From Patescibacteria group bacterium (lineage in GTDB: Bacteria > Patescibacteriota > Microgenomatia > Levybacterales > GWA1-39-11): a stretch of 64,000 bases of DNA. Position numbers and translations under genes: made by a program. Position 1 is the first letter of the stretch. Every line of letters begins with the position of its first letter. The stretch lies in the NCBI GenBank assembly GCA_035549295.1, contig DASZRG010000021.1, positions 2,596 to 66,595 on the forward strand. The letters are read 5' to 3'. This document shows positions 470 to 49,216 of this stretch, piece by piece. Below the pieces are notes generated by a model that was not told the origin of the DNA, did no database searches, and saw nothing but the letters and a program-made list of their open reading frames with translations.

Positions 470-590
470 AAGCAAAAATAGATATTAGATACTAGAGATT
501 AGATATTAGTAATTGTTGACGGGATGTTAATTTTGAATTTGCGTGAATTCTAATGTCTAGTATCTAGTTTCTAGTATCTCTCTTGGGGTG
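470..590. repeat. Inverted heptamer-repeat element, family A (A[CT]TAGAT units; arms gatattagatactagagattagatattag / ctaatgtctagtatctagtttctagtatc around a ~45 bp spacer)
   Basis: Directly visible tandem 7-mers forming a long imperfect palindrome. The same family recurs at 13205, 18262/18645, 19322, 20040, 50400 and 54600. Confidence 0.8.
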
Positions 591-6046: not shown

Positions 6047-7345
6047 TTGTTTACATTTACTTTGCTTGATAATAATATAGACAGAATTATGACGGCGATG
6101 CAGATAGGCGAATTGATAGAAAATTTAGATCAGATAAAACTTGCACCTGAAATATATAAATACGATTCTTTTAACGATGAACCTCACTTTTACGGTTACA
6201 AGACGTACCTGGCACTTTCTAAAAAAATGACAGACGGCATTATGCAGCGCGGTATAGCTGGCGTGGGTACTTCTTTTCTCTCACCAGAAGATGCGCTTTC
6301 AAAGTCAATTTACGAGGCAATGGAGAGGCTTAATAATTTTACATATAAAAAAGCCGACCTAAAATATAGTTCATACGATAAAAATCAAGACAAATTCATA
6401 GACCCAGTTGCCTTTTTGTGTGATGTGAGCACTCGAGAGAAAAGACTAGGCTGGGTTGAAGGGGTAGAGTTGCTATCTGGAAAAAAGAAGTTTTTCCCCG
6501 CTCAGCTAACATATCTAAATTATACACTGCAAAAGAACGAGACATACCTTTCTTACCCTCATAACAGCAATGGCTCAGCAGGCGGCTCAACTCCCACGCA
6601 GGCAACTCTGCATGGCATCTATGAGCTAGTCGAGCGTGACTGTTTGATCACAGCATATTTGAATAAGATTTCGCTTCCAAGAGTTGATCTTGTATCTCTT
6701 CACGACAAGAAAATTGATGAAATTATGCTGCTTTGTCAAAAATACAGATTGGATTTTTTTGTGTTGGATATGACCAATGATTTAGGTATTCCATCATACA
6801 TTTCTTTCATGAATGACCATTTTGGTGGTCCGCCGATTGCCTTTGGGTGTAAGTCAAGTCTTCGTAGTCGAGATGCGATTTTTGGTGCAATTCTTGAGTC
6901 TCTCATGATAAGGATGTCTATAAAGCGCATGATTCGTGAGGGGACAATTTTTGGCGAACACGCCAAAAGTGGCGATTTGTTTGCCGATCGCGCGCGATAC
7001 TGGTTGTTTCCTGGAATGGCAAGTAAGCTTGATTTTTGGACGAAGAATTCAGGCTTTGCTAAAAGCCGCGATAATTTCAAAGGAAATCTGGATCATGAGC
7101 TTGAAGAAGTTGCCAGAAGACTCACAAGTCGCGGATTTAATATCTATGTTGTTGATTGCACAATCCCCGAATTTCGCAAATTAAATTTTTTTGTTCACAA
7201 AACTTTTATACCTGGTACTCAGACGCTTTACTTGCTTGAAAGTGAGAGGAGCTCGGCTATGGACTTAGGTCGCCTGAAGCAAGTTGCAAGCTTTTTTGGT
7301 AAAAAGTTTGTTAAGCCGAATAGTGTACCGCACCCCTTCTTATGA
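6047..7345 (+). CDS. YcaO-domain cyclodehydratase (TOMM/LAP 'D' protein)
   Basis: SNGSAGGSTPTQATLHGIYELVERD matches the YcaO signature (E. coli YcaO SNGLASGNT..AILHGL.EVIERD). ~430 aa and not fused to an E1-like C domain. Track start is TTG; ATG at 6086/6095 is a possible true start. Confidence 0.8.
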   Translation: MFTFTLLDNNIDRIMTAMQIGELIENLDQIKLAPEIYKYDSFNDEPHFYGYKTYLALSKKMTDGIMQRGIAGVGTSFLSPEDALSKSIYEAMERLNNFTYKKADLKYSSYDKNQDKFIDPVAFLCDVSTREKRLGWVEGVELLSGKKKFFPAQLTYLNYTLQKNETYLSYPHNSNGSAGGSTPTQATLHGIYELVERDCLITAYLNKISLPRVDLVSLHDKKIDEIMLLCQKYRLDFFVLDMTNDLGIPSYISFMNDHFGGPPIAFGCKSSLRSRDAIFGAILESLMIRMSIKRMIREGTIFGEHAKSGDLFADRARYWLFPGMASKLDFWTKNSGFAKSRDNFKGNLDHELEEVARRLTSRGFNIYVVDCTIPEFRKLNFFVHKTFIPGTQTLYLLESERSSAMDLGRLKQVASFFGKKFVKPNSVPHPFL

Positions 7346-8166
7346 AAAGTATCAAAAGTACCAAAGGTATCAAAGGTATCAAAAGTCGGCAGACGCTGAG
7401 ATTGGAGCAGATTTTGGGAAAGCCTATTTTTGAATTTCAAAAGTTTCATCAAATAACGAAAATTAAAAAACTCGGGCTACCAATAACAGTTAAATCTCTG
7501 GAAGAGGAGTCCAAGTATTATCCTGATGAGTGGAAAACTGTCTTTTTCAAAGGTTACTCACGATTTGAGGAGGTAAAATTACCAAAACCACAACTCAAGA
7601 ATTCAGTATCTTTAAAAAAAGTTTTGTTTGAACGACGTTCACGTCGCGAATTTTCAAAAAATCCATTATCCCGGAAGGATTTAAGTACGCTTTTTTATTA
7701 TAGTGTGGGAGTGAAGTCACCGGATTCAGGTCTGATAAGTAGATTCTATCCATCTGGGGGTGGACGGTTTCCTCTTGAAATATATTTTCTTCCTGTAAAT
7801 TCTGAATTACCGAAATTTTTTTATCACTATTATGTCAAAAATAATAGTCTTGAGAAAATGTTTGAGTTCAAAAAGCGCGATATGCAAAAGATAACTAACA
7901 TTGATTGGGTAAAAAATGCAGGAGGAATAATATTTATTACGGCAGTTTTTAATCGCACTACAATCAAATATGGTGAGCGTGGTTATCGACATGTTATGAC
8001 AGAAGTTGGCTTTGTTACGCAGAATTTCTGTCTCCTTGCATCGGCTCTCAACTTAGCTATTTGTCCGATAGGCGCATACGCAGATGACACTATTAACAAG
8101 TTTTTGGAACTTGACCCACTCTTGGAATCGGTTGTTGGAGTTTTAGTAGTTGGGAAAAATCGGTAG
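7342..8166 (+). CDS. SagB-type (nitroreductase-fold) azoline dehydrogenase (TOMM 'B' protein)
   Basis: RRSRREF motif and RFYPSGGGRFPLEIYF (SagB/McbC family R..PSxG..YP.E.Y). ATGA overlap with the YcaO stop. Confidence 0.8.
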   Translation: MKSIKSTKGIKGIKSRQTLRLEQILGKPIFEFQKFHQITKIKKLGLPITVKSLEEESKYYPDEWKTVFFKGYSRFEEVKLPKPQLKNSVSLKKVLFERRSRREFSKNPLSRKDLSTLFYYSVGVKSPDSGLISRFYPSGGGRFPLEIYFLPVNSELPKFFYHYYVKNNSLEKMFEFKKRDMQKITNIDWVKNAGGIIFITAVFNRTTIKYGERGYRHVMTEVGFVTQNFCLLASALNLAICPIGAYADDTINKFLELDPLLESVVGVLVVGKNR

Positions 8167-8207: not shown

Positions 8208-8708
8208 ATGGACAAGATTTTAAAAATTAGCATAGTGGTTTTGATCGCGTGTCTTGCGTTTGAAGTATATTATTTATATATCTATAAAACAGATAGCGGC
8301 ACTCGCTACGCTACACAGAAGCCTTCTATTAAAAAGCCCCAAAGTAATTCTGCGGTTAGTACGGGAATCACGAATTATATTGCAAGCTTCGATAAGAATA
8401 TTCTTAAAAAATCGGAAATATCAAATGAGATTGAGGGGAAAATCGCCAAGGTACTCGATGCTCCTGGTGTGATGAATCAATTCCAATATGAAAAGGGGCT
8501 GGCGATCGCGCGTTCCAATGGCCAGAGTGTAGTCAACTACTATTTTTTGAGAAAATCAGACATCCCTAAGCTGAAGGTGGTTCAGAATGGGCAAAATATT
8601 CAATTTTCAGATCTAAAAATAGGTGATACAATAAAAATCGAAGAAACAATGGATCTGCTTGCAGCACCAGGTAGTAATCGCGAGTCTGTTGAAATAGATA
8701 AATTATGA
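8208..8708 (+). CDS. N-terminally membrane-anchored hypothetical protein (cluster-associated)
   Basis: 166 aa with a single N-terminal TM helix. Its last 20 codons are part of the 410-bp duplicated unit that also contains precursor 1. Confidence 0.5.
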   Translation: MDKILKISIVVLIACLAFEVYYLYIYKTDSGTRYATQKPSIKKPQSNSAVSTGITNYIASFDKNILKKSEISNEIEGKIAKVLDAPGVMNQFQYEKGLAIARSNGQSVVNYYFLRKSDIPKLKVVQNGQNIQFSDLKIGDTIKIEETMDLLAAPGSNRESVEIDKL

Positions 8709-9034
8709 AGTACCAAAAACCAAAAATTATAAGTAAGAGAGTAAAGCTCAATATGTTTATATCCGATCGTTCCCGAAATTCACTTGCCTTCAATTTAGTT
8801 GGTCCAGTGTTTGCCCAAAGTACCGGAGGGGGCGGAGGAGTTGGTGGTGGCGGTGCGTCTTGTACCGGTGCAGCAGATAGTGGGTGCGGATTTTGTAATT
8901 GCGCTACCGCTTTTGGCTGTGGCGAGGGAGGTCAGGGAAGTGGCATTCATGGTGGTTGTGATGGCTCAGGCTGTGGGGGTGCTCCCACTTGTGATGGAAG
9001 TAATACTTGCGGTAGTGCGGGTGCACCTTCCTAA
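8705..9034 (+). CDS. RiPP precursor peptide 1 (microcin B17/LAP-like; 38-aa leader + Gly/Cys/Ser/Thr-rich core)
   Basis: MKYQKPKIISKRVKLNMFISDRSRNSLAFNLVGPVFAQ followed by STGGGGGVGGGGASCTGAADSGCGFCNCATAFGCGEGG...CGSAGAPS. 12 Cys in a Gly-rich core, adjacent to YcaO/SagB. Confidence 0.7.
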   Translation: MKYQKPKIISKRVKLNMFISDRSRNSLAFNLVGPVFAQSTGGGGGVGGGGASCTGAADSGCGFCNCATAFGCGEGGQGSGIHGGCDGSGCGGAPTCDGSNTCGSAGAPS

Positions 9035-9115
9035 ATTTACTCATAGCGTACTCGTTTCCATGGATCTGCTTGCAGCACCAGGTAGTAATCGCGAGTCTGT
9101 CGAGATAGATAAATT

Positions 9116-9454
9116 ATGAAGTATCAAAAACCAAAAATTATAAGTAAGAGAGTAAAGCTGAATATGTTCATATCCGATCGCTCACGCGACTCACTTGCCT
9201 TCAATTTAGTTGGTCCAGTATTTGCGCAGAGTGCTGGCGGCGGCGGTGGTGGAGGCGGCGGAACCACTGGATCTTGCACCGGGGCTGCTGCTGGTGGGTG
9301 CGGATTTTGTAATTGTGCAACTGCCTTTGGTTGCGGACCAGGAGGCTCAGGAAGTGGTGTTCACGGTGGTTGTCAGGGATCAACCTGTGGTGGTGCCCCC
9401 ACTTGTGATGGAAGTACTACTTGCGGTACATGTTTGGGCGGTCCCGGAAGCTAA
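9116..9454 (+). CDS. RiPP precursor peptide 2 (tandem paralog of precursor 1)
   Basis: Near-identical leader and a diverged Gly/Cys-rich core (13 Cys), part of a 410-bp tandem duplication. Confidence 0.7.
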   Translation: MKYQKPKIISKRVKLNMFISDRSRDSLAFNLVGPVFAQSAGGGGGGGGGTTGSCTGAAAGGCGFCNCATAFGCGPGGSGSGVHGGCQGSTCGGAPTCDGSTTCGTCLGGPGS

Positions 9455-13207: not shown

Positions 13208-13320
13208 TAACTAGTAACTAGAGATTAGATACTAGATATTAGGAAACTCGCACAAATAGGACATCGTGACCAGATGGTACTCTAAATTTCTATTTACTAA
13301 TATCTAGTTTCTAGTATCTA
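13205..13320. repeat. Inverted heptamer-repeat element, family A
   Basis: ctagtaactagagattagatactagatattag ... ctaatatctagtttctagtatctagtc around a ~55 bp spacer, between convergent genes. Confidence 0.8.
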
Positions 13321-13575
13321 GTCTATAATGCCTTTCGACTTTAGGTCTTTTAGGAATTCGGAGAGGTCGGAGTGCGCTTCTTTTTCCGAAATTTTGTACT
13401 TCTCAACGAGGTTTTTTAGTATTTCGTGCTCTTCTTGGCCATGTTTTAGTTGATTAAAGATAAACGTCGCTGTGTCATTGAATGTATGAAATACCGATTT
13501 TTCGCTATCAAAAATCTTGAGTTTTTGGCCTAATTTATCGCTAATTATTCCCTTTTTAATCTTGTGTTTTGCCAT
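13318..13575 (-). CDS. PqqD-family protein (RiPP recognition element, RRE)
   Basis: 85 aa. KIFDSEKSVFHTFNDTATFIFNQLKHGQEEHEILKNLVEKYKISEKEAHSDLSEFLKDLKSKGII fits the PqqD/RRE fold pattern. Confidence 0.7.
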   Translation of the reverse strand: MAKHKIKKGIISDKLGQKLKIFDSEKSVFHTFNDTATFIFNQLKHGQEEHEILKNLVEKYKISEKEAHSDLSEFLKDLKSKGIID

Positions 13576-15007: not shown

Positions 15008-16201
15008 TTATTCTTTAATCATTATTCTATTATTTGCGAGGGCGAGTAGCACGAAGAAGAGTATGAGCATGGGGAATATCCGGTATGTATAATCGACTTG
15101 GAAGTTAAAAAGCATAGCGAGCGCAAGATAAAAATAGAGATTTTTTTTTGCCCCCCTAAGCATTTCGAAAATAATCAGTATAAAAATGACTCCAGCAGGA
15201 ATTCCATTTTCAACTAGAATATCTAAAAATATGTTGTGAGCCGTTTCAGTCCATATTCCTCGTATTGATTCGTATTCTTTTGACGCTACTATAAAGTTAC
15301 CGGGTCCTACCCCTAGAAGCGGGTGGTCTATTGTTGACAGAATAGACTCCCGAACATACTCCCCGCGACCGCCGTATGGAGACTTATAGTGCAAACTATT
15401 ATTTGCGACAAGATAATGGTTTATATCTTTAAGAAACTGTTCAGAGCCTGAATTAATCGATAGAGAAAAGGTAAAAATAATAGATATAAAGACTATAAAT
15501 AGTGCAAATATAATGTTCAAATTTATTTTTTGTATTTTTGATTTGTAAAAGTTATATAGCATAATAATTATTGTTAAAACCAGTCCTATATATGCACTTC
15601 TTGAATAAGAAAGAATGAAGAAGGGAAGTAGTATAAGAGTTAATAGTAAATAGTTAATAGTTAATAGGTAAGGTAAGAATTGAGATGTGATAAGTGAGAT
15701 GGATTTCTTTTTTGAAGTTAGAAAATAGAGCAAGGTTATGAGGGGGAGGAGTAGGAAGTCGCCTAGGTGGTTGTGGGAACCGAAGCGAGAAAATACAAAT
15801 TGGTATCCCGTCAGCGGAGCACTCAAAATTCCATTTTCTATTAAGATTGATGCGAGAATAAATATAAAAGTTGCGATAAAAATAAATGGAACGATAAATT
15901 TTGATACTAATTTTTGGTTCCTTTGGGTAAAAATGTATGCCGAAAATGACGCTATGTAGAGAAGATAAAAGATTAAAGATTTAAGATTAACGCTCGCGAG
16001 TAAAGATACAAATGAAACGCCAATAAATAGAATGAAAAGTGTTCTAAGTCTTTCGGGAATATCTTTGTTTTTTAAATAGAAGATCAACATTGTACATGGG
16101 ATTGCGAGAAATATGACAGTCAATAATGAGAATGTTATGGGAAATCCCAATCCCTGGATAATAAAGATAATTAAAAATAGCAAAAAATACGCCTGCGACA
16201 T
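15008..16201 (-). CDS. O-antigen ligase/polymerase (Wzy/WaaL)-like polytopic membrane protein
   Basis: ~10 TM segments and the periplasmic-loop motif ETAHNIFLDILVENGIPAGVIFILI, typical of the O-antigen ligase family. Confidence 0.6.
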   Translation of the reverse strand: MSQAYFLLFLIIFIIQGLGFPITFSLLTVIFLAIPCTMLIFYLKNKDIPERLRTLFILFIGVSFVSLLASVNLKSLIFYLLYIASFSAYIFTQRNQKLVSKFIVPFIFIATFIFILASILIENGILSAPLTGYQFVFSRFGSHNHLGDFLLLPLITLLYFLTSKKKSISLITSQFLPYLLTINYLLLTLILLPFFILSYSRSAYIGLVLTIIIMLYNFYKSKIQKINLNIIFALFIVFISIIFTFSLSINSGSEQFLKDINHYLVANNSLHYKSPYGGRGEYVRESILSTIDHPLLGVGPGNFIVASKEYESIRGIWTETAHNIFLDILVENGIPAGVIFILIIFEMLRGAKKNLYFYLALAMLFNFQVDYTYRIFPMLILFFVLLALANNRIMIKE

Positions 16202-18261: not shown

Positions 18262-18690
18262 GCTAGATATTAGTAACTAGATATTAGGATTTTCGCTGCG
18301 GAGTGGTCATTTTATTTAGCATTCTCATTACTTCATCAAGTAATCTGTCAGCTTTTTCAAAATCTCGAACTTCGTCGAAAGATAATTTTTTGGATATTAA
18401 AATTTGGGTTTCAAGTTCACAACCAGAACCAAAAGATATTAAATAGAATTGATCCTTTTCTTTATGAGTTTTTCTCCCAAAACCTTCTGCTATATTAGAA
18501 GGGATAGAAACTACTGCCCGTCTCATTTGCATTACAATTCCGAATAATTCCGATTTAGGAAAATTACTTGTTATTCTATAAATTTCAACTACAAGTTCAA
18601 TAGATTTTTGCCAGACAATTAATTCCTTATATGACTTCATGTTAATCCTAGTATCTAATATCTAGTATCTAGTTTCTAGTGTTATAATAT
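18262..18690. repeat. IVS-like cassette: four-helix-bundle gene bracketed by ~27-bp inverted family-A heptamer arrays
   Basis: Left arm ctagatattagtaactagatattagga (18265-18291) and right arm tcctagtatctaatatctagtatctag (18648-18674) are near-perfect reverse complements. Confidence 0.7.
18284..18640 (-). CDS. Four-helix-bundle protein (23S rRNA intervening-sequence protein / Avd-like family)
   Basis: WQKSIELVVEIYRITSNFPKSELFGIVMQMRRAVVSIPSNIAEGFGR matches the TIGR02436-type consensus (W.k...l...iY.lt..FPk.E.ygL.sQlRRAa.SI..NIAEG.gR). Confidence 0.8.
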   Translation of the reverse strand: MKSYKELIVWQKSIELVVEIYRITSNFPKSELFGIVMQMRRAVVSIPSNIAEGFGRKTHKEKDQFYLISFGSGCELETQILISKKLSFDEVRDFEKADRLLDEVMRMLNKMTTPQRKS

Positions 18691-18697
18691 CTCTGTG
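18683..18697 (+). promoter_or_regulatory. Possible -10 box (TATAAT) 6 nt upstream of the pth GTG: candidate leaderless transcript
   Basis: gttataatatctctGTG, with no SD sequence. Confidence 0.3.
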
Positions 18698-19321
18698 AAG
18701 GTCATAGTTGGACTAGGCAATCCAGGAGAGAAGTATGAGAAAACTCGCCATAATTTGGGTTTTCTTGCGACAGAAGCGTTACTTGAGAAATGGGAAAGAC
18801 TCGATAAAACATTTTGGGATGATAATCACAACCTCAAATCACATATCAAAAAGATCAGAATCAAGAATCATGAATCAGGAATCAAGGATCAGGACATTCT
18901 ACTCGTTAAGCCGGCGACTTTTATGAATAACTCAGGTTTTGCGGTTTCAAAAGTGTTGAATTATTTCAAAGTTGAACCCGCTGACTTATTCGTAATTCAT
19001 GATGATCTAGATCTTCCGTTTGGCAAGATACGAGTGAGGTTTGGTGGTGGGGCAGGGGGCCATCACGGGGTCGAGTCGATCATCGAACAGCTTTCAACCG
19101 ATAAATTCTTGCGTATTAGACTAGGAATTGGTAGTCCAAAACATATCGAAGGAAAAGAAGTGAAGAGTAAAAATCATCAAAATGTTGACGATTATGTGCT
19201 TGGGAATATCACAGGTGCTTCTCGTGGGAAAGTAAAAACAATGCTTCACGAGGCCGTCAAAATAGTCGATCAGCTCCTTGAACACGGCATAGATACGTAT
19301 ATGAGTAAGTACAATAAGTAG
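18695..19321 (+). CDS. pth: Peptidyl-tRNA hydrolase with in-frame heptamer-repeat insertion
   Basis: VIVGLGNPGEKYEKTRHNLGF is the Pth N-terminal signature. A 14-codon insert (KIRIKNHESGIKDQ) is encoded by AATCA[ATG]G heptamers. Confidence 0.85.
   Translation: MKVIVGLGNPGEKYEKTRHNLGFLATEALLEKWERLDKTFWDDNHNLKSHIKKIRIKNHESGIKDQDILLVKPATFMNNSGFAVSKVLNYFKVEPADLFVIHDDLDLPFGKIRVRFGGGAGGHHGVESIIEQLSTDKFLRIRLGIGSPKHIEGKEVKSKNHQNVDDYVLGNITGASRGKVKTMLHEAVKIVDQLLEHGIDTYMSKYNK
18855..18900 (+). repeat. AATCA[ATG]G heptamer tandem array (6 units) in frame inside pth
   Basis: atcagaatcaagaatcatgaatcaggaatcaaggatcaggac. 42 nt keeps the reading frame. Confidence 0.8.
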
Positions 19322-19400
19322 ATACTAGTGACTAGATACTAGATATTAGTTGTTTAAGATGTGTATTTGCTAGTAGCTAGTATCTAATATCTAGTTTCTA
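19322..19400. repeat. Inverted heptamer-repeat element, family A
   Basis: gatactagtgactagatactagatattag ... ctagtatctaatatctagtttctaactag. Confidence 0.8.
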
Positions 19401-19401: not shown

Positions 19402-20034
19402 CTAGACTTTTCCAGCTAGGGGATTTTTACCGCGGATTTCTTTGTTTGTTATCTTTCCATCTGAGTCTATTTGATAGACATACGCTTCGCCTGTACCTAT
19501 TTCAAGTCCAGAGATTTTGTCCTCTGGTATATTTTCGAGATATTTAACTAGTGCTCGAAGTGCATTGCCACTTGATGCAATAATAATGTTTTTACCATTT
19601 TTAAGTTGTGGTTCAATTTCTTTTTGATAATATGGAAGTGCTCTTTCGTAAACTTCTTTAAGAGATTCTCCTGATGGGATAGGGTAGTCCCAACTGCGTC
19701 TGATTTGTTGGAAGACTTCTTCGCCGACCTCTTCCTTTACCTGCCATTTATTTTTGTTGCTAAAGTCTCCGTAGTTTCTTTCATTAAGTTCCCAGGCAAC
19801 AGTTGTTGGGATGTCGGTTTGACCAATTGTTTTTTTAACTTCATCGAGTGTCTCTTTGGCTCGCCTTAAGATAGAGGTAAATGAAAGGTCAAACTCAATA
19901 TCTTTTAGTTCTTCGCCAGTTTTTTGAGCTTGTTCAACTCCTTCGGGGACAAGGCTGGGGTCAATCCAACCACACCAAAGACCCTTTTTGTTGTATTCGG
20001 ATAATCCATGTCGGACGAGTACGAGATAAGCCAT
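19402..20034 (-). CDS. gpmA: 2,3-bisphosphoglycerate-dependent phosphoglycerate mutase (short form)
   Basis: LVRHGLSEYNKKGLWCGWIDPSLVPEGVEQA is the histidine-phosphatase RHGxSxWN motif region. Confidence 0.75.
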   Translation of the reverse strand: MAYLVLVRHGLSEYNKKGLWCGWIDPSLVPEGVEQAQKTGEELKDIEFDLSFTSILRRAKETLDEVKKTIGQTDIPTTVAWELNERNYGDFSNKNKWQVKEEVGEEVFQQIRRSWDYPIPSGESLKEVYERALPYYQKEIEPQLKNGKNIIIASSGNALRALVKYLENIPEDKISGLEIGTGEAYVYQIDSDGKITNKEIRGKNPLAGKV

Positions 20035-20039: not shown

Positions 20040-20115
20040 GTATAGGGATATTAGTAACTATAGACTAGTAACTAGCAATTTCTAATATCTAGTATCTAAT
20101 ATCTAGTTTCTTAAG
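20040..20115. repeat. Inverted heptamer-repeat element, family A
   Basis: gggatattagtaactatagactagtaactag ... ctaatatctagtatctaatatctagtttc. Confidence 0.8.
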
Positions 20116-32713: not shown

Positions 32714-33796
32714 GTGTCAGATTCTTCAAATTCAAACAAATCTAATTCTCCAGCTCGCTCGATGGCTGAGCTTATGGCTCGGTCTGGTAACAACTTGCAA
32801 GTTCTCACAAAGGGCCAAGCAATAACTGGTACTATCAAAAAACTTACTCCTGAGGAAATTCTCATGGATATTGGTGGTAAGGGAGATGCATTAGTTATCG
32901 AGTTTGATCGCCAAAATCTTGAAAATCTCCTTTCAATTCTAAAAGTAGGGGATAAAGTTACCGCAACAGTTATTTCACCAGAGTCTGAAGAAGGATTTCC
33001 AGTTCTATCTCTTCGCCGCATGCTTGATGATGTCATTTTCAAGAAATTTGAGGATCTTTCAAAGTCTGACAAGCCATTTGAGGTAACACTTGGTGAGGCT
33101 ACTCGTGGAGGCTATTTCGCAGAGACTTCTGAGGGGGTACGCGGATTTTTGCCATCATCTCAGCTTCTCGATACAACCGATATGACTGGTAAAAAAATAG
33201 AAGTAAAGATTATTGAGCTCGATCGCTCAAAAAAGAGAGTAGTATTCTCTCAAAAAGCAGTCTCAATGCTAATGAATATAGATGAGCTTAAAAAGCTCTT
33301 TAAGACCGGTGACCGAGTCACAGCCGTAGTTGTAAACGTTACGCCATATGGACTTTTTGTAAGTGTTGCGAAGGACGGAAATACAGCTGAAGGTTTTATA
33401 CATATCTCTGAGATAGCTTATGAAAGAGTTGAAAATTTAGCCTCAAAATTCAATGTCGGTGACAAACTGGATGTCGAAGTTGTTGAGGTTGATGCGTCAA
33501 ACAAGCGAGTTAATCTCTCTGTAAAGCGCACCCAAAAGGATAAATTTGCAGAAGTTGAAGAGAAATACAAGCCAGAGACGAAAGTTAAGGGTCGTGTTAT
33601 CGAGACAAAGACTCGTGGTGTTACTGTCGAGCTTGAAGAGGGTGTTAATGGATTTATTCCCGCTGACAAAATACCATCAGGTACAACTTATGAAGCAGGA
33701 CAAATGGTAAATGCTGAAGTTGTCGAGATCGACCGCCGCCGCCGCCTCGTTGTAGTATCACCAGTGCTGAAAGCCGTACCAATCGGGTATAGGTAG
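32714..33796 (+). CDS. S1 RNA-binding-domain repeat protein (short ribosomal protein S1-like)
   Basis: Four S1-like repeats (GQAITGTIKK..., GDKVTATVIS..., GDRVTAVVVNVTPYGLFVSV..., GDKLDVEVVEVD..., GRVIETKTRGVTVEL). GTG start with AAGGGGG 8 nt upstream. Confidence 0.7.
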   Translation: MSDSSNSNKSNSPARSMAELMARSGNNLQVLTKGQAITGTIKKLTPEEILMDIGGKGDALVIEFDRQNLENLLSILKVGDKVTATVISPESEEGFPVLSLRRMLDDVIFKKFEDLSKSDKPFEVTLGEATRGGYFAETSEGVRGFLPSSQLLDTTDMTGKKIEVKIIELDRSKKRVVFSQKAVSMLMNIDELKKLFKTGDRVTAVVVNVTPYGLFVSVAKDGNTAEGFIHISEIAYERVENLASKFNVGDKLDVEVVEVDASNKRVNLSVKRTQKDKFAEVEEKYKPETKVKGRVIETKTRGVTVELEEGVNGFIPADKIPSGTTYEAGQMVNAEVVEIDRRRRLVVVSPVLKAVPIGYR

Positions 33797-33830
33797 AATC
33801 ATGAATCATGAATTAAGAATCATGATTTTT
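33797..33830. repeat. AATCATG/AATCAAG heptamer array (intergenic)
   Basis: gaatcatgaatcatgaattaagaatcatga. Confidence 0.75.
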
Positions 33831-33875: not shown

Positions 33876-35264
33876 ATGGCTTCAAAAACTCACTTCGTTT
33901 GTTCAAATTGTGGTTATGAGTCTTCAAAATGGCTTGGCCGATGCCCAGACTGTTCTTCTTGGAATACTTTTACTGAGGTTGCAGCACCGGTTGCCGAAAA
34001 AGCGACAACTCGCGCGAAGGCACTCATAAAAATTGCATCTTCAAGCTCTCCCCAAGCTATTTCTAAGGTAGTTAGCGTACAACAGAGTAGAATATCTACT
34101 GGTTTTGTCGAATTTGATCGGGTTCTTGGTGGAGGAATAGTGGCAGGATCTGTAGTATTGCTGTCTGGTGATCCTGGAATAGGTAAGTCAACAATACTTT
34201 TGGAGCTGGCAATCAATGTAGCGGTTGGGGGTTGGAGGTTAGGGGTTGGTGAAGAAGCCAAAAGCCAAAAGCCAAAAGCCAAGAGTCAGACGCGAACTGT
34301 TCTGTACATTACTGGTGAGGAGTCTGAGAGTCAGGTGAAAATGCGCGCTGAACGCATCAATCAGGGAAAAGCAGATCCTGAATCTCTATTTGTCTTCTCA
34401 ACTGCCGATATTGAGGCAGCAATTGCAGCTTGTGAGGTCTCAAAGCCGGATCTTGTAATAGTCGATTCGATTCAGACAATGGCAACTGAGGAGTTTCCTG
34501 GATATCCAGGATCTTTGCCCCAAATAAGACATGCGACGAGTAGGCTTGTCTCATATGCCAAAACGCATTCTGTGCCCGTTTTTCTAATAGGGCATGTGAC
34601 AAAGGAGGGAGTTGTGGCCGGGCCCATGTTGCTTTCACACATGGTTGATACGGTTCTTTATCTTGAAGGTGAAAAACTAACGGGGACCAAGATATTGCGT
34701 GCATTCAAAAATAGGTTTGGCGATACGACAGAAGTTGGAATTTTTACGATGGAAGAGTATGGACTAGCCGAAATTACAAATACATCAAAATACTTTATGA
34801 ATAGCGCAACCGAAGCCGTGCCCGGTTCGTGTCTAACAGTCGTTATGGAGGGTAGTAGGCCGCTTCCTGTTGAGGTGCAGGCACTTGTTGTCCCGACAAA
34901 TATGTCTTTTGCAAGACGAGTCGCAAATGGAATCGCTGAAAAACGCGTGGAGTTGTTACTTGCTGTTATTCAGAAGCATTTAAGAATTCCTATTGATAGG
35001 CATGATGTATTCGTAAATGTAGTGGGCGGACTTAAAATAACAGAAAATGCATCGGATTTGGCGGTATGTCTTGCAGTATTGTCGTCTTTTAAGAATAAGC
35101 CTCTCAAATCAACTGTCGCGATTGCTGAAATTGGTCTTCTGTCAGAGCTTAAAAGCGTTATGAATGAGGCTGCACGTGTGAAAGAGGCAAAGAAGTTAGG
35201 ATTTACAAATGTAATTACTCACGGGAATATGAAATACCTGGGTGATATAATGAAATCGCTATGA
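33876..35264 (+). CDS. radA: DNA repair protein RadA/Sms with in-frame CCAAAAG-repeat insertion
   Basis: CSNCGYESSKWLGRCPDCSSWNTF zinc finger, GDPGIGKSTILLE Walker A, GHVTKEG, Lon-like C-terminus. Insert EEAKSQKPKAKSQ is encoded by gccaaaag repeats. Confidence 0.9.
   Translation: MASKTHFVCSNCGYESSKWLGRCPDCSSWNTFTEVAAPVAEKATTRAKALIKIASSSSPQAISKVVSVQQSRISTGFVEFDRVLGGGIVAGSVVLLSGDPGIGKSTILLELAINVAVGGWRLGVGEEAKSQKPKAKSQTRTVLYITGEESESQVKMRAERINQGKADPESLFVFSTADIEAAIAACEVSKPDLVIVDSIQTMATEEFPGYPGSLPQIRHATSRLVSYAKTHSVPVFLIGHVTKEGVVAGPMLLSHMVDTVLYLEGEKLTGTKILRAFKNRFGDTTEVGIFTMEEYGLAEITNTSKYFMNSATEAVPGSCLTVVMEGSRPLPVEVQALVVPTNMSFARRVANGIAEKRVELLLAVIQKHLRIPIDRHDVFVNVVGGLKITENASDLAVCLAVLSSFKNKPLKSTVAIAEIGLLSELKSVMNEAARVKEAKKLGFTNVITHGNMKYLGDIMKSL
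34255..34292 (+). repeat. CCAAAAG heptamer array in frame inside radA
   Basis: gaagccaaaagccaaaagccaaaagccaagagtcag. Confidence 0.8.
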
Positions 35265-36118
35265 CGGAGAGAAATCAAAAATCAAAAATCAAAAATCAAA
35301 AAAATTTAAGCGCAAAAAAGAGCGTTGCTAAACCGGTTGCTCGGGTTGAGAAGGCTGCGACAAAAAGAGGGGATGCGGCTCGATCTTTATCATCTGAGGT
35401 ATTGCAAAACATTATGCTGCCTCCTCGGGTTATTCGACAAATTGCCGATGAAGTAGGAAAAGCGGTCAGTAAAAGAGTCAATGTCAGACGTCGAAAAAGT
35501 ACAAAGTCGAACAAAAAAATTGATAACTGTGTATTCCTCGATACATCGGCAATTATCGACATGAGAGTCTTTGATTTGGCAAAAATTGGAGCACTTTATG
35601 GTAATTTCATAGTTCTTGATAGCGTCCTAACGGAGCTCAAAAACATTGCCGATTCAAAAGATCTTGTCAAAAAAGCTCGTGGCCGGAGGGCTATGGATGC
35701 TCTTGATGATTTCAAAAAATCCCGCGGGATAAAGGTTAAAATTCTGGCTGATGAGTCAAATAAACCAGTTGATGAAAGTATAGTTGACCACGCCAAAGCA
35801 TATAAAGGACGTGTTATAACGTGCGACTTTAACCTCGCAAAGAAAGCAAAATTATCAAATGTTGTTGCGATTGATTTGTATGAGCTTGCAAATATTCTTA
35901 AGACGCAGGCACTTCCTGGTGAGGAATTTTTTGTCAAAATAGTTCAGGAGGGGAAGGGTATCGGCCAGGGAGTTGGATATTTGCCTGATGGGACCATGCT
36001 TGTTGTGGAGCAGGGTAAAGCATATCTTGGAAGCACAATACAAGTGCAGGTATCTCGAATCATCCAGACCGACGCAGGCAAGATACTCTTCTCGAAGATA
36101 AAGGCCCCAATCAACTAG
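35261..36118 (+). CDS. PIN + TRAM domain protein (YacL-like), N-terminal AATCAAA-repeat low-complexity tail
   Basis: VFLDTSAIIDMRVFDLAKIG...VLDSVLTELKNIA (PIN), C-terminal TRAM-like GSTIQVQVSRIIQTDAGKILFSKI. Synteny radA-yacL as in Bacillus. Residues 5-13 are encoded by aatcaaaaatcaaaaatcaaaaatc. Confidence 0.7.
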   Translation: MTERNQKSKIKNQKNLSAKKSVAKPVARVEKAATKRGDAARSLSSEVLQNIMLPPRVIRQIADEVGKAVSKRVNVRRRKSTKSNKKIDNCVFLDTSAIIDMRVFDLAKIGALYGNFIVLDSVLTELKNIADSKDLVKKARGRRAMDALDDFKKSRGIKVKILADESNKPVDESIVDHAKAYKGRVITCDFNLAKKAKLSNVVAIDLYELANILKTQALPGEEFFVKIVQEGKGIGQGVGYLPDGTMLVVEQGKAYLGSTIQVQVSRIIQTDAGKILFSKIKAPIN

Positions 36119-36169
36119 TGAGGAGTTAGCGTTTAGCGTTTAGGGGTTAGTAAAAAAATGCACATTGTC

Positions 36170-36225
36170 GTCCTGAATTTATTTCAGGACCTCGATTTGA
36201 GATGCTGAAACAAGTTCAGCATGAC
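36170..36225 (+). other. Two consecutive short hairpins (gtcctgaa-ttta-ttcaggac; atgctgaa-acaag-ttcagcat), terminator/processing-site candidate
   Basis: Perfect 8-bp stems sharing a CTGAA...TTCAG core, and no T-run. Confidence 0.3.
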
Positions 36226-36451
36226 AATCGTCTTGATTAATCATTAATTACTTTAGTCTTAAGGTTTTAACGACCAAATTGCTCTGGTTCCCCTTAATAC
36301 TTTATATCTTATACTTAATACTGGTCAGCTCGTGATACCCGTGATACCTTTTCCATCGTTCTCTTGTATTCCAGGTTCATTTTGTGTACAATAAATTCTT
36401 CGGCTTATATATCCGTGTTGATCGGCTCTTTAATCCGCGAAAATCTTTTTA

Positions 36452-39918: not shown

Positions 39919-39919
39919 T

Positions 39920-41296
39920 GTTGTTTTTGATATCAAATAGTATCACGAGCTGAGCAGTATCAGGTATTTGGTTAAGGTATCAGGGGAATCAGCGAATAAG
40001 GAATAATGAGAATACGAAAACTCGTCAACCGCAATTCTTTTATTACTTAAAGCATCTTTCTGCTTAGAGTCTACTGTCTATCGACTACAGTAGACGGTGG
40101 TCTGTAGACTATAAATAAATTTACTTAATTCTTTCTACTAACTACTTAATACTTTTTTTGCGGCGTAGATGCCACTAGAAGAGTTTTTCACCTAACAAAC
40201 CGTATCTTTGTATACCTCATGTGAAAAATTGGATCGTCGAAGGGATGGAAAGTGGGGGACAAGCAACTTACAAAAAAAGATCCACAGAATTACTGCTTTA
40301 AAAGGGAATAAGAAAGCCTGCCTCCCTCACAGTGCTTACTTGCTCCCGAGGTCTACATCCTCGCGTCGCAAGAGCGCATGTGCGGGACTTCGATAGATAC
40401 TGAGTGTATCTATCTTCGCAACTCCAATAAAAAAAGACCTTCAGTTACTAATTTAAAAGGAAGTAAGAAAGCCTGCCCAACTCTCCTACCTCCATTCAAA
40501 TCAGCAACAAAAGATCTTTTCATGCGTGAAAAAATTGGTGAAAAAATCAATGTTTAGTAATCCAAACTATCAATTTTTGCCTCACCAATTTTTCTTGACA
40601 AGATATCTACGCTTCTGGTAATTTAACTACCAAGCATAGTCTTTTCCTGCCTAAAGACTAAAGCTTACTTTTTAAAAGAGCATTGCTTTTCGTACTTAAG
40701 GATTTATTTTACAGTAGCGAAAGCGATGCTCTTTTTTTACTTTTTAACGATCGTTTAAATTCAAAGAAGAAAGACCGGTAGACTTAGTCCCCGATCGACC
40801 ATCTTTTGAATTTGGTCTCTTCCTGCTTTCTCAATTTGATCTTGATAGAAGTCCACGATTCTTTTCGCTTCCTTCTTTTGATTCGCCTTTAATAATTTTG
40901 GAAATTTCATAACTTAAAAGTAGTATAGCATAACTTGCGAAGACTCGCAACCTATAGCAAAAATAGTGAAAAATTGATACTTTATGATATAGACCCAGAG
41001 TAATTAATTATTCATTTTAGACTTATATATCAATGTAAATAAAAATGTTATAAAAAAATGTGGATAACTTTGGGAAAATTAATTTGCCTATTGACAAGTG
41101 AGTAAAGTAGCAGAAAAGTAGGGTTTTGTATTACAAAAGGTATCACTCGGGCGAAATACTACCAATACATACCAATACTACCAATAAACAAATCAATTCA
41201 AAGTCAATCAGGATCAATAAAAGAAATTTATTTGTTAAATAGATGATTTAAGGATTTAAAAAATTGATTGGGTTATTGTTATATTTGTATATTGGG
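39920..41296. other. 1.4-kb AT-rich non-coding region (possible small ORFs/ncRNA; promoter- and terminator-like motifs)
   Basis: No ORF >=60 aa. Contains TTGACA-N17-TAATTT near 40600, a hairpin agagcattgcttt...aaagcgatgctct + T-run near 40680-40750, duplicated aagaaagcctgcc boxes at 40300-40470, and a ~50-aa minus-strand ORF near 40772-40921. Confidence 0.4.
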
Positions 41297-44200
41297 TTAT
41301 TTATTAACGTTTCTTCGCTTCAGGAGCTTGATTACTACTGCTACCGTGGCTGCAAAGAGCAGTAAGAATCCAGCATATTCTAAATATTGCGGCATGTAGA
41401 CAATTAGTATCTGGGTGTTAGCGCTTAGGGGTTGGGTGTTAGAATTTATTTCCCAGGCGTTCTCCCACGAATTGAGCTCGACATGTGTTTTAATTTCACT
41501 CCCGAATATAAAGGGAAATGCCGCCGCGAGATTCTTCATTATTCCTTCTTCATTATTCTTTATTCGGTATGCATGCCATCCCGCATCATATGACTGCGCG
41601 AGTACCAAAATGCCGTTTGGATTGGGATTTTCGGCAAGATTTACGATATAAAGACTCTCATTTGGATGTGAGATATTATCTATTTTAAGATTGTTTTGAG
41701 TCGAGCTTGCTTTTGGAAGCCCGAGCGAGATATTTGTCAAGAAATTGTATGGAATAGGGTGGACCTCGAGCTTTTTGAGCGTATTTTGATTGATATCATG
41801 ACCTATCGAGCCATTGTCAAAATGGAATGAGTAGCCAAGGCCACCAGCTGCCGCTGGCGGCAAAACAAAGCTTTCAAGCCCAGCACCCGACAGGTATGTA
41901 TCTATTGGAGATGTTTTTTCGTCTTCGTTGAGTATCCAGAAATGAAATGGTCGACCCGCTATTTTGTCGGAATTAACAAAGACCGCATAGCCTTGATCTG
42001 AGAAAAGACTACCTAGATAAAATGACAAACATTCGGTTGTGTTTGCGGATCTTACCATTATTGCACCAGTGTTGTCAGTTGAGAGCGTATTTTGGCCATT
42101 TCTGAAGTTATTGCAGGCACTTGTTGTGGCATTTGATCCCTTCGTGTTAAGTGCGAAATAAGGGTCGTTTACGCGCGGTAGAACTACTGTAATTGTATGG
42201 GGGCCAGAGCTTATGGGCAATACAACGCTTTGATTTATACTTGTAGAAAGTGACTCAGGTGTTAGGTTTATCTCGTTTAAAATGTTTTTTGATGAAGCGA
42301 CAATTTGGTTGTTTTGCGCAAGTGATAGGACGGAGTCGCCTAGTAAGTCGCCTTGATTTTTGTCTTTTACAACAACTTGAGATACACCGTTAACATTTAT
42401 CACGACAGGGTATACTGCTTCGCGTGGCAAAGTTACAACAGGAACATTCAAGTCATGCTCGAGAATTGTTTTCCCATCAATCGTAATTTTTGGTACGGAG
42501 ATCGAAGCTGTAAGTAGAATATTGCCTTTACTATCAATGCTTTTATAAAAAGTGACAGGAATATTTTTTTCGAGATTTTGGTAGTTTGGTATCACGATTT
42601 GCGAGGCATTTTTTAGGATAAGGTTTGTTGAAACTGTTATATTCTTGTCGTTTTCCGTGACCTTAAAATCATTGTCTGTTTGTTTTTCAGAAAATAGCGA
42701 CCCGAATGGATATACTAGGCAGTCTTGAGTTTTTGCACAGTCCGAATTTATATAATTACCAAGAGTTGAGTAGGCCGGATCTATTGTTTTCCAAAAAGGA
42801 ATATCAACATTTTGCAGGTCAGTTGTGGTAGATGAGACAAAAGATTTTGGATTACTTTTGAGAGCATATCTGTATATTTTTATTTTTCCAAACTGTGCTG
42901 CAAGTCTGATACCGGGAATTTCAGAGATCAATTTTTCAGTCTCAGGATACATTAGGCTTTTGGCGGAGGCTGGGTATATGACGTTTTCATCAAGAAGTAA
43001 CCAAGTTGCCTGGTATTTATCAAGGATATTTTGAAGCCGTATTGGATCCCTTGAGTATAGGGCGCTTGATGCCTCCCAGTAGTAATTTTCAGAAGTAGCA
43101 GACCAGACATCAAAAGCGCGGTCAAGAATAGGCTGTTTTATTCCATACCAAATAAAACCAGATCCACCCATTCCGTATCCGTAGTTGGTCCATCCCCAAA
43201 ATGTAGGTTGTGGTAGGTTGGCAATACGCGTTGCCTGGTCTTGATGCTTGAAGAAGTCAAATGTTCTGAAATACTCATTGGGTATTGCTAGTCGCTCTTT
43301 GTTGTAGAAAAGATTGCCGGTGAAGATGGGCCAGGAGATAAAGATGATTAATGAATAAAGAATAATGAAGAACGAATAATGATATCTCTTCTTGATTCTT
43401 GATTCCTGATTCTTGATTCCTTGATATATCTCCTGTGATCCTATTGCGAGCATCAGTGAATATGCGAGGCCTGCCATAAGCGAGAATTTGGTGAATGGGA
43501 AGCGGAAGACTTGGGAAAATAGGGGTATTTTTTGAAACAGTGCAAAAACTATTGAGAATGGAAACGCATCGGTTGCGAGCATAGTAAATCCGAAAGTAAA
43601 CAAGGAAATAGTAAATAGTAAATAGTCACTAGTTTTCTTCCGTTCGCGCTTTCTGAACAAATTCCAAATGGGAATTAACATTATGATAAATAAAAGATAA
43701 CCGGAGAGGGTTACGAGGGGATTTGCGAAGTGGGAACGCCATGGGGCGAGCATAAACATGTTATTTCCATTGATGTCAGGATCGACGTTGTTGAACCAAA
43801 ATCCTTTAAGAAGTGGAGTATCAAGCAAGTTGCCAAACTCTTTATTTTGCTCAAAAATATTGGCGGTTGCCATCTGATTGATCTTAGCGTTGACGTTGAC
43901 CCGAGAGTTTTGAAGGGTAAAAAGAGCAAATGGCGCGAGCCAATATGCGTTTACCACAAGAAGCGTCAGGAGAATAATAAGCGATCTTTTAAATATTTCG
44001 ATGCGATTTTTGTTTGTCAATAGTTTGACGAAACATAAGAGCGCGATAACCATGCAAGTTACGACAAAAATAGTTGGTACATAAAATGATGGGATTGAGA
44101 GCACGAAAACGACAAACATGAAGGCAAAAGTCTTTTTTTCAGGCTTTTGCATGTATTTTGCAACGGATAAAATGATCCATGGAAGCGCGGCAAAGTGAGC

Positions 44201-46147: not shown

Positions 46148-46598
46148 ATTATTCGGAAAACTCAGAAAACTCAGAAAGTCAGATTTATCAGACTTTCATA
46201 TCTTCTGAGTACTCTAAAACCGACAAGATTGCTCTTACAAGCTTTAGGGTTGGTATACAGCGGTGTTAGTCTCATGAGTGAGAGGCTTGTCGAATCGACA
46301 AACTTAACTCAAAAATGAGAAACACCTGACAGGCACTTAATCGTAATCGATCACTCTTGTTCCACAGCGAATGTGGCGTAGAATGATGAAAACTCATAAG
46401 TTTTCTGCAATAGACAAATTTGCCTAACCAACCCCAATCAGTCATTACGTGACTAGCGTCCAATTAATGGCCCTACCTTGTATGGCTGACAAATGTCAGA
46501 CATAGCCTATGTGCAAGCAATTTCAGCTTCAAGGTCATAGGTTTGAAGTACGTCCCCGCGACGTGTTGGTTATGTAAAGTAGCTCTGAACGGCGCTCC

Positions 46599-46799: not shown

Positions 46800-46804
46800 G
46801 ATTG

Positions 46805-48256: not shown

Positions 48257-48400
48257 AGCTCCCCCTTTCTCTAGGCTTATTAGCCTGTGAATTTTAGGGG
48301 AGGGGAAGTTTTGCACTTACGTGCGCATCTTCCCGCTCCCGCAGAATCGGTCCGGTTCACAGCACCAGGAGGAGATGATGTTCTCCGGACCAGGTGTTGG

Positions 48401-49141: not shown

Positions 49142-49216
49142 CTTGCGACTCCTACATTAAATAGATGCCAGGAAATGGTTCCTGCAACCGCTAAGTGCGC
49201 ATTTCGCGCGATGTTG

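Follow-up and report, generated by a model that had tools for sequence, protein, structure and literature searches.

Tandem arrays of 7-nucleotide (nt) units are unusually abundant in the genome of a Levybacterales bacterium (Patescibacteria), represented here by a 64,000-nt stretch of contig DASZRG010000021.1 (hereafter the window), which also carries fewer arrays of 8- and 9-nt units. Several of the heptamer arrays lie in frame within conserved protein-coding genes, including those for peptidyl-tRNA hydrolase (pth) and RadA (radA). An earlier note on this DNA, made from its letters alone, had proposed such families and had suggested aligning orthologues as a check, and in these alignments the array sites of Pth, RadA and a Wzy_C-domain protein (array at 15629–15671) coincide exactly with insertions. 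The best reading of the data, which we regard as probably correct while keeping appreciable doubt, is that a slippage-type process amplifies heptamers and that, of the products, selection afterwards retains only steps of 21 nt in loops that permit them. For the arrays inside genes, the most apt view is that they are tolerated by-products, adding short loops of low complexity, and are not switches.

The excess was established with Tandem Repeats Finder (TRF), which yields 34 period-7 rows in the 64 kb versus 1.3 expected from 20 second-order Markov shuffles. Periods 8 and 9 are also in excess (8 rows versus 1.35 and 14 rows versus 1.3, respectively). Independently of TRF, the self-match autocorrelation of intergenic DNA is strongest at lags of 7, 14 and 21 nt (0.3035, 0.2905 and 0.2955, with a baseline of ~0.27). 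The heptamer arrays described in the earlier note are real, except that the unit of the proposed GTATCAA(A/G) family is 9 nt long (7341–7386, 51406–51446 and 56974–57011). As the note had also stated, the arrays are mostly intergenic: when the first 46 kb are split by a simple longest-open reading frame (ORF) gene set, period-7 arrays cover 10.0% of intergenic versus 1.0% of coding bases. Of the 45 spacers between genes that measure 40 nt or more, 20 hold an array of 7- to 9-nt units. A tRNA scan and an Rfam search at the gathering threshold gave no match in the whole 64 kb, and no array overlaps a known RNA.

The same motifs recur at different loci. Scored by exact canonical matching, the 32 non-overlapping arrays form 24 identical pairs versus 0.56 expected for heptamers drawn from the window, and a null made only of AT-rich heptamers gives 2.4 expected pairs with a maximum of 12; single-linkage clustering at ≤1 mismatch, for which the random-pair probability is 4.9%, chained all motifs together. 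The CTAG family (ACTAGAT/ATTAGAT/AACTAG) comprises ~10 arrays, every one of them intergenic. Four arrays belong to the AATAATG family, and NGAATCA arrays, whose degenerate position is the same throughout, occur at four unrelated loci (18857, 33796, 43389 and 56934). Further families are AAAAATC, AAGTATT and AAGCCAA. A motif-specific process is possible in view of these families shared between loci.

Arrays within protein-coding genes

Related contigs compared with the window are labelled with L-numbers (L001, L002, L004, L006 and so on), and the nearest named relatives for both Pth and RadA are Candidatus Levybacteria/Levyibacteriota, which makes the host a Microgenomates-type bacterium of the candidate phyla radiation (CPR). 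The pth gene is essential. Its array consists of five imperfect units (AGAATCA AGAATCA TGAATCA GGAATCA AGGATCA, 85% matches). In an alignment of 40 Pth orthologues, the sole strongly length-variable part is the segment between the strands IKKIRIK and ILLVKP, and among 120 orthologues this flanking segment measures 23 amino acids (aa) in 72 distinct sequences and 29–30 aa in 13, with few intermediates. Alignments with homologues from the PDB likewise have a gap at the array site, and a separate Pth difference of ~6 aa near residues 150–160 is not heptameric. The earlier note was right to place an array here, but the gain that it put at 14 codons is 7.

Insert-free orthologues of pth hold a single seed unit, AAAATCAAG, at the array site. 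For example, the insert-free gene of L002 (75% identical) reads ATT AAA ATC AAG GAG GAA GAG, and the window reads ATC AGA ATC AAG + AAT CAT GAA TCA GGA ATC AAG + GAT CAG GAC. Codon by codon, the comparison indicates that one resident (A)AATCAAG unit has become four, adding 21 nt and the 7 aa NHESGIK. In the AlphaFold model of Pth, whose mean predicted local distance difference test (pLDDT) score is 88, residues 57–65 form the turn of the hairpin E49–56/E66–73, and the insert block has pLDDT values of 78–81.

The radA gene, which is conserved yet not known to be essential in model bacteria, carries two adjacent arrays. Alignment with Streptococcus pneumoniae RadA (8rxc) leaves a 21-residue gap precisely at NVAVGGWRLGVGEEAKSQKPKAKSQ. 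Among 120 Levybacteria orthologues, the segment GKST...VLY has a modal length of 15 aa, which the window exceeds by 20, and inserts of +7 to +50 aa occur at this single site in ~40% of the distinct sequences. Insert-free radA genes in L006 and L090 read GCC AAA AAA (seed GCCAAAA) at the array site. The insertion claimed in the earlier note lies where an array lies, but it amounts to ~20 residues from both arrays (34223–34249 and 34255–34282), and not only to the 13 residues listed there. In the AlphaFold model of RadA, residues 120–136 score below 50 and lie between helix 104–117 and strand 142–146, and the insert is predicted to be a disordered loop after the Walker-A helix. Both models agree with the expectation that the inserts would fall in surface loops.

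The in-gene arrays had been described as multiples of 21 nt. The arrays themselves are 21–43 nt long, and it is the net insertion relative to insert-free orthologues that is a multiple of 21 nt. The idea that a 3n register is kept is supported by the bimodal Pth lengths, by a +7 aa insert in Wzy and by a +7 class of RadA, in which the 7-aa length is constant while the sequence drifts (SQKPTAN, SQKPIAN and SNEPAAN).

Arrays lie in other genes as well. The one that the note placed at the N-terminus of the YacL-like gene is present and perfect. As tblastn conservation of this PIN-domain protein with L006 and L004 starts only at ~residue 38, the N-terminal tail that holds the array is not conserved. 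In the Wzy_C gene, the array at 15629–15671 fills a 7-column gap relative to L088 and L004, and the segment NHLGD-SYSRSAY, 54 aa long in the window, has 50 aa in L002 and is 11 aa shorter in L088 (43 aa). At the site of the window's (TTAACTA)n, the L002 gene carries (GTCAGTA)n and gains 7 aa. The 1132-aa membrane protein (41297–44695) has as its orthologue a 1172-aa protein in L093 (516 identities in 1189 columns) with arrays at the same 3–4 positions that differ in motif and length. Its loop encoded at 43344–43425 is length-variable, and L093 holds a longer array-coded insertion in that loop, in keeping with the gain that the earlier note proposed for this protein. The large proteins adjoining pth in L088 and L002 were also considered as orthologues of the 1132-aa protein, and were rejected on alignment as not homologous.

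In each of Pth, RadA, Wzy and the large membrane protein, the unit motif at a given site differs between genomes. Aligned in register, the units inserted into Pth read AATCATG AATCAGG AATCAAG in the window, AATCATG AATCAAG AATCAAG in L001, AACCACG AACAACG AACCACG in L095, AACGACG AACGACG AACCACG in L087, AACGACG AGCGACA AACGACA in L004, AACCCTG AACCACA AGCTAAA in L096 and AGCCAAC CGCCAAA AGCCGAC in L089. Units within one genome share derived bases: compared at the same unit position, units of different genomes lie 2.9 apart on average, whereas the mean distance within genomes is 1.43. A permutation test of 20,000 shuffles never attained the observed value. Because the three units are read in three frames, selection at the protein level cannot explain these parallel changes. 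The concerted pattern therefore needs homogenisation at the DNA level or repeated rebirth of the array. In addition, the presence of the Pth insert does not track similarity, as the insert-free L002 is closer to the window than the insert-bearing L004. Gains and/or precise 21-nt losses have therefore recurred.

The earlier note had worried that arrays of this kind would be unstable in pth and radA, and the comparisons between close strains do not support this concern. L093 and L094, from two groundwater samples, belong to one Levybacteria species. They differ by 43 substitutions in 12 kb (99.64% identity), with no gap across 13 heptamer arrays. The Logan assembly L092 (run SRR12170510) and the window do not differ at all over 12.8 kb, although both may derive from one sample. 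Insert length is also held while the units diverge. With copy number unchanged between close strains, the arrays do not appear to act as fast phase switches.

Richness in heptamers is seen in other Levybacteria contigs, with 9 arrays in L002, 15 in L087 and 14 in L093, each in ~20 kb; L004 and L088 are rich too. L006, the only locus obtained from a RadA scan of genome contigs, served as an insert-free, heptamer-poor control: it has one array in 21 kb and no inserts, despite a RadA identity of 65%. This contig (CAYVKP010000005.1) is labelled as an uncultured gammaproteobacterium, yet it has the gene order radA to PIN gene and its PIN protein is 76% identical to that of the window; judged from these sequences, the label is probably wrong. 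As a background set, Pth-bearing metagenome contigs among the matches listed, mostly of 36–46% identity, were used and were not treated as orthologues. The 80 distant loci of this set (720 kb, among the matches listed) hold 1.4 period-7 arrays per 10 kb versus 5.3 per 10 kb in the window. Period 7 is the commonest TRF period in these distant contigs as well, which agrees with the published abundance of heptanucleotide repeats in many bacteria.

Intergenic arrays and their surroundings

Inverted pairs of the CTAG family, arranged as (TAGATAY)n, spacer and (RTATCTA)n, occur at four intergenic loci, and three of the four fold better than shuffles (z from -2.6 to -5.6), so that the palindromic arrays mentioned in the earlier note are confirmed. 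Divergent, convergent and co-directional gene pairs all have this arrangement between them, and its spacers show no relationship to one another. The hairpins are AT-rich, 20–30 bp long and without T tails. A scan of 12.5–22.5 kb for canonical intrinsic terminators gave 3 sites versus 6.7 expected, all inside ORFs and none in spacers or at arrays, and no G+C-rich stem followed by a T run was found at the arrays. Given the mixture of gene contexts, the unrelated spacers and the lack of a GC stem or T tail, the array hairpins are neither classical terminators nor conserved mobile elements. A consensus promoter scan gave 40 matches versus 29 expected, and the listed sites lie mostly outside arrays.

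The clearest case of conservation lies upstream of the His_Phos_1 gene (phosphoglycerate-mutase-like). In L002, L004, L087 and L088, a (NATAYTN) array of 5–6 units ends 4–5 nt before the ATG, and the array is present in L007 and L089 too, which probably brings the genomes with this placement to six. The window's arrays at 20052–20105 are the counterpart of the (NATACTN)5 conserved in these relatives, the units GATACTA/GATATTA being one base from GATACTT/AATACTT/TATACTC. The flanking proteins of the genomes that share this array are only 55–75% identical. Because motif, copy number and position are kept despite this divergence, a neutral microsatellite is hard to reconcile with the data. By this comparison, the NATAYTW family is probably maintained by function, as a candidate promoter, operator or RNA hairpin. 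In other places, such as the S1–radA spacer, syntenic intergenic motifs often differ between genomes.

NATAYTW units fit nAnnnT, like a -10 hexamer. The units upstream of His_Phos_1 resemble tandem -10 boxes, and no Shine-Dalgarno sequence is present there. An extended -10-like TGTTATAAT stands 6 nt before the pth GTG (18681–18697); the corresponding positions hold TGCTATAAT, 7 nt and ATG in L001, and TATAAT, 8 nt and ATG in L002. This arrangement suggests leaderless transcription of pth and His_Phos_1 and a promoter-related role of the arrays. By analogy with known systems of contiguous heptads, an operator-like role may also be architecturally possible.

Immediately adjoining pth is a gene for a 23S rRNA-intervening-sequence protein (PF05635, E=2e-35; 18284–18640, minus strand). 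Its homologue in L004 (10604–11033) is bracketed by inverted arrays, (TAGGGAT)n and (CTAATCC)n, which recalls the flanking stem of rRNA intervening sequences. Arrays of 9-nt units have their own distribution: (AATACTACC)x3.4 lies at 41155–41186, with inverted AATACTACC arrays also upstream of pth in L004 and L088, and the unit TGATACTTC occurs between genes at 56984–57009 and in the 3' end of the large membrane-protein gene of L093 (13701–13733). The AATACTACC array of the window lies within a ~1.4-kb region (39919–41296) that has one doubtful 62-aa ORF, spaced GTATCA/GAATCA words at 39920–40000 and palindromes at ~40070–40110.

The remaining observations concern other parts of the window. At 36160–36232, in a 333-nt spacer without a match in Rfam, TGTCGTC...GACAATCGTC encloses two perfect hairpins that adjoin each other (GTCCTGAA...TTCAGGAC and ATGCTGAA...TTCAGCAT). 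A tandem duplication (8649–9014 and 9106–9428, ~83–84% identity) covers two pairs of small ORFs that overlap in alternative frames (8705–9034/8799–9119 and 9116–9454/9210–9479), and a GGC-rich repeat lies at 9231–9261. From 46000 to 64000, the G+C fraction is 0.46–0.58 in most 2-kb bins versus 0.36–0.46 in the first 46 kb, and the genes include a Flp/Fap pilin-like gene, one for a DUF11 protein, one with a weak TIM-like match and many without a Pfam match. This part is probably resident DNA without a chimeric join, because it holds the genome's own array families (ACTAGAT at 50412 and 54599, NGAATCA at 56934 and GTATCAA 9-mers at 51406 and 56974).

Table 1. Coordinates of genes and repeat arrays (window positions unless a related contig is named)
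Feature	Coordinates	Strand	Basis and remarks
Inverted pair (TAGATAY)n / (RTATCTA)n between divergent genes	479–579	.	TRF; fold -38.6 kcal/mol, z=-5.6
(TATCAAAAG)x5.1, 9-nt unit	7341–7386	+	TRF
CTAG-family inverted pair between convergent genes	13219–13322	.	TRF; fold z=-3.85
(TTAACTA)n in Wzy_C O-antigen-ligase-like gene (15008–16201), encoding LPYLLTINYLLLTLIL	15629–15671	-	TRF, alignment
(AAGATTA)n in Wzy_C gene	15962–15990	-	TRF; no clear length change relative to orthologues
Single (CTAGTAT)n arm directly 5' of pth	18648–18680	+	TRF; TGTTATAAT comes next, with the GTG start 6 nt further on
pth, peptidyl-tRNA hydrolase, 208 aa	18695–19321	+	Pfam PF01195, E=9.7e-60, residues 3–207; many PDB homologues
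In-frame NGAATCA array within pth	18857–18894	+	TRF, sequence; encodes ...IRIKNHESGIKDQ...; net gain 21 nt = 7 aa NHESGIK
CTAG-family inverted pair, pth stop to 3' end of His_Phos_1 gene	19319–19400	.	TRF; fold z=-2.6
Adjacent inverted arrays upstream of His_Phos_1 (19402–20034, minus strand)	20052–20105	.	TRF; gene-sense units GATACTA/GATATTA
Intergenic (GAATCAT)x4.3, NGAATCA family, between S1 gene and radA	33796–33825	+	TRF
radA, 462 aa	33876–35264	+	Pfam; PDB 5lkm/8rxc, E about 1e-112; 120 Levybacteria orthologues
First radA array (GGTTGGG)n, encoding GGWRLGVG	34223–34249	+	TRF, codons; inside 21-residue gap relative to 8rxc
Second radA array (AAGCCAA)x4, perfect, encoding AKSQKPKAK	34255–34282	+	TRF, 100% matches
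Perfect (AAATCAA)x4.4, codons 4–14 of PIN-domain (YacL-like) gene (35261–36118)	35272–35302	+	TRF, translation
(ATTATTC)n near C-terminal part of 1132-aa protein	41531–41565	-	TRF; aligned position in L093 is (AACTTTG)n
Adjacent arrays 43344–43382 (ATGAATA-type) and 43389–43425 (TCAAGAA, i.e. NGAATCA family), 1132-aa protein	43344–43425	-	TRF
(AAATAGT)x3, perfect, 1132-aa protein	43606–43626	-	TRF; region with indels relative to L093
(ACTAGAT)x5, main intergenic family	50412–50446	+	TRF; inside higher-GC part of window
8-mer arrays AATAAGCA / ATTCAAAC / ATTTGCAT forming long hairpin	54402–54629	.	TRF; fold z=-5.3
(TAGAAAC)n within the preceding region	54599–54629	.	TRF
Intergenic NGAATCA array (56934–56961), then TTGATACNN 9-mer arrays (56974–57011)	56934–57011	+	TRF
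His_Phos_1 upstream arrays in related contigs	L002 7260–7294; L004 9235–9269; L087 9236–9277; L088 9215–9249; L007 4242–4276; L089 3164–3191		

Explanations for the arrays

In the explanation that we favour, slipped-strand or duplication events would multiply a local heptamer into head-to-tail copies. Local amplification is supported by the single seed units at the array site in insert-free orthologues, and given these seeds (AAAATCAAG in pth and GCCAAAA in radA), the dedicated insertion process raised in the earlier note is not required. Arrays would accumulate freely between genes, and the survivors in coding sequences would be those with in-frame length changes (three units being 21 nt, or 7 residues) at structurally tolerant sites, presumably through selection. 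The tolerant sites are the beta-hairpin turn of Pth, the RadA loop that follows the Walker-A helix, the tail at the N-terminus of the PIN protein and, in both Wzy and the large membrane protein, variable segments. Once fixed, coding arrays would hold their length in the long term, with occasional re-homogenisation or rebirth in three-unit steps, and rare three-unit expansions or contractions (4 to 1, or 4 to 7) or recombination between alleles might keep them homogeneous. The NATAYTW family (here ACTAGAT/ATTAGAT), common to Levybacteria genomes, would in addition be kept by function.

Several findings weigh against this explanation. Slippage cannot take an array from one unit to four in one step, and intermediates with one or two extra units would frameshift the essential pth. 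The motifs are not random local words, as there are 24 identical canonical pairs versus 0.6–2.4 expected. NGAATCA occurs at four unrelated loci, and SNEPAAN is found in both Pth and RadA of other metagenome-assembled genomes (MAGs); such recurrence may point to a process specific to certain motifs, or to a bias that strongly favours them. RadA insert lengths tested for multiples of 7 aa gave a weak signal and not clean multiples. Slippage followed by selection also does not account for the preference for period 7.

Intergenic heptads (NATAYTW/CTAG and others) might instead be protein-binding or promoter elements, with the in-gene arrays as spill-over. They could take the form of tandem -10-like boxes for leaderless mRNAs, or of operator or centromere heptads to which a small DNA-binding protein binds cooperatively, as in the omega/parS system of pSM19035. 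This account, which overlaps with the explanation above, is possible although we lean against it. It draws on the array kept upstream of His_Phos_1 in L002, L004, L087 and L088 (and in L007 and L089) despite the divergence of the flanking proteins, on the GATACTA/GATATTA units that the window keeps there, and on the -10-like nAnnnT units, with the array before pth followed by TGTTATAAT 6 nt from the GTG. Runs of at least four contiguous 7-bp heptads, direct and inverted, are a proven protein-binding architecture (PMC9499535), and the intergenic spacers of 12.5–22.5 kb contain no canonical terminator. However, no single promoter or terminator role fits inverted pairs that occur in divergent, convergent and co-directional contexts, motifs at syntenic spacers often differ between genomes, promoter matches exceed expectation only from 29 to 40 and lie mostly off the arrays, and no candidate binding protein was identified in the window.

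The recurrence of motifs might also mean that arrays spread as pre-formed, motif-specific modules, whether by template switching, by gene conversion between arrays or by a heptamer-adding activity. Such spread would agree with the 24 shared pairs, with the NGAATCA arrays at 18857, 33796, 43389 and 56934 and their common degenerate position, with the ATACTTA-type and AATACTACC/TGATACTTC motifs found at different loci of several genomes, and with the arrival of three units at once in the essential pth without viable intermediates. We nonetheless find it improbable. Seed units occupy the exact site in insert-free orthologues, conserved flanks or target duplications were not seen and the spacers of inverted pairs are unrelated; moreover, A-rich motifs match the common Lys/Asn/Glu loop codons of an AT-rich genome, which inflates motif sharing. 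A more speculative combination, to which we give little credence, would treat the heptad arrays as a regulatory code of multi-site promoters or operators and add a heptamer-specific amplification in three-unit steps that would time and again rebuild and homogenise 21-nt blocks at fixed positions within essential genes, with no frameshifted intermediates. If true, NATAYTW arrays before start codons and outward-facing pairs could serve leaderless genes, or a DNA-binding protein peculiar to the lineage could read them.

Phase variation by gain or loss of one heptamer, with the perfect in-gene arrays (radA x4 and PIN gene x4.4) as contingency loci, is very unlikely. Units indivisible by 3 do lie within ORFs (pth, radA and the PIN gene), the copies in these perfect arrays match at 100%, and heptanucleotide simple sequence repeats (SSRs) are discussed in excerpts of the Haemophilus phase-variation literature. 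Against this, no copy-number difference separates L093 from L094 at any of 13 arrays, nor the two assemblies of the window's organism, although the L093/L094 comparison is indirect for the window's own arrays. Insert length is kept across orthologues that differ by many substitutions, the tracts are short at only four copies, and the pth array is imperfect (85%) in an essential gene. That the arrays arose by chance, or as artefacts of assembling AT-rich DNA of low complexity, can be regarded as refuted. The arrays are indeed short (2–6 units) and AT-rich, but they show a 26-fold excess over shuffles, the Logan assembly of SRR12170510 matches the NCBI MAG contig exactly over 12.8 kb, MAGs obtained independently from other samples contain homologous arrays, and the arrays sit in intact reading frames with full-length domain matches.

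The window offers a clean natural experiment on non-triplet microsatellites entering proteins, with only three-unit states, the same permissive loops and concerted units. How an essential gene came to have four units instead of one is a concrete question for the mechanics of slippage. Annotators can attribute to the arrays the length variation and the low-complexity loops of CPR proteins that are otherwise conserved. Where conserved arrays directly precede start codons, they are candidate promoter or operator elements, in bacteria about whose gene regulation hardly anything is known.

Relation to known repeat systems

The short tandemly repeated repetitive (STRR) elements of heterocystous cyanobacteria have the motifs CCCCAGT, TTGGTCA and CAACAGT, and STRR heptamers inside the cyanobacterial RNase P RNA gene were reportedly described by Vioque in 1997. 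As in that system, a few heptamer families are dispersed over many loci and shared by related genomes (NATAYTW/ATACTTA in the window, L002, L004, L007, L087 and L088), and an essential gene tolerates arrays where the structure of its product permits them. In contrast, the motifs here (ACTAGAT, NGAATCA, AAGCCAA and others) and the phylum are different, the organism being one of the Levybacteria, and the STRR case concerns an RNA gene whereas the window's arrays lie in protein genes that need a three-unit register. The TAACTGA repeats of marine Beggiatoaceae, cyanobacteria and Bacteroidetes are likewise arrays of 2–6 heptamer copies, mostly a few nt upstream of start codons where Shine-Dalgarno sites are rare, with occasional ORF copies that encode the 7-aa repeat LSVISYQ at protein peripheries, according to excerpts of PMC4679880. 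They differ in having a single dominant motif with stops in all forward frames, whereas the window has several families, frequent inverted pairs and inserts in interior loops of conserved enzymes. With motifs and taxa both different, the window's arrays are not members of the STRR or TAACTGA systems.

The heptamers GGGAATC and GGGGA(T/C)T of Xanthomonas and Nostoc resemble the present arrays in being intergenic, in forming some inverted pairs between convergent genes, and in having positions conserved between related genomes while length and sequence vary (excerpts of PMC4692102). They are, however, G-rich and G-quadruplex-forming, whereas the window's families are AT-rich except for radA (GGTTGGG)n. 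The in-ORF repeat units of Borgs are divisible by 3, whereas only three-unit blocks of the 7-nt unit keep the frame here. Both add low-complexity, disordered peptide at tolerated places in ORFs (for Borgs, excerpts of PMC9879509; here, RadA residues 120–136 with pLDDT below 50 and the Pth hairpin turn at 78–81). Borg repeats are described in the same excerpts as recently formed and rapidly evolving, and the window's arrays differ in being length-stable between close strains.

Contiguous 7-bp units, direct and inverted and typically 4–7 in number, are also found in promoter regions of the pSM19035 omega/ParB (parS) system (PMC9499535), and the intergenic arrays of the window, with 3.4–5 units and inverted pairs, include runs of at least four. 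The omega system is a defined plasmid system with a ribbon-helix-helix binder; the resemblance is architectural only, as no binder, plasmid context or partition genes were seen in the window.

The closest counterpart is the class of long SSRs (LSSRs). In most genomes, no class of long SSR is more abundant than that of heptanucleotides, for which polymerase slippage has been proposed (Mrazek 2007, as summarised in excerpts of PMC4679880 and PMC4692102), and the 7-aa repeats encoded by heptamer arrays within ORFs lie mostly at the periphery of proteins (excerpts of PMC4679880). In the window, too, 7-nt units are repeated head to tail at a frequency above that expected from composition. As described in the same excerpts of both papers, 7-nt tandem units are the most over-represented, mostly intergenic, of proposed slippage origin, and units that are not multiples of 3 are disfavoured in coding DNA. 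The excerpts describe LSSRs for Burkholderia, Xanthomonas, cyanobacteria and actinobacteria, and recurrent 21-nt in-frame inserts in core enzymes are not among the features that they list. A search of the searchable library found no published link of heptamer repeats with Patescibacteria or CPR bacteria. Generation of the window's arrays by replication slippage would fit their sequence features, and it seems to us fairly likely, if not assured, that they are a lineage-specific case of the heptanucleotide SSR excess already known in other bacteria. They would extend a known kind of repeat to a new lineage, the CPR, with an evolutionary twist: recurrent 21-nt loop inserts that evolve in concert, together with conserved intergenic heptads that are possibly functional.

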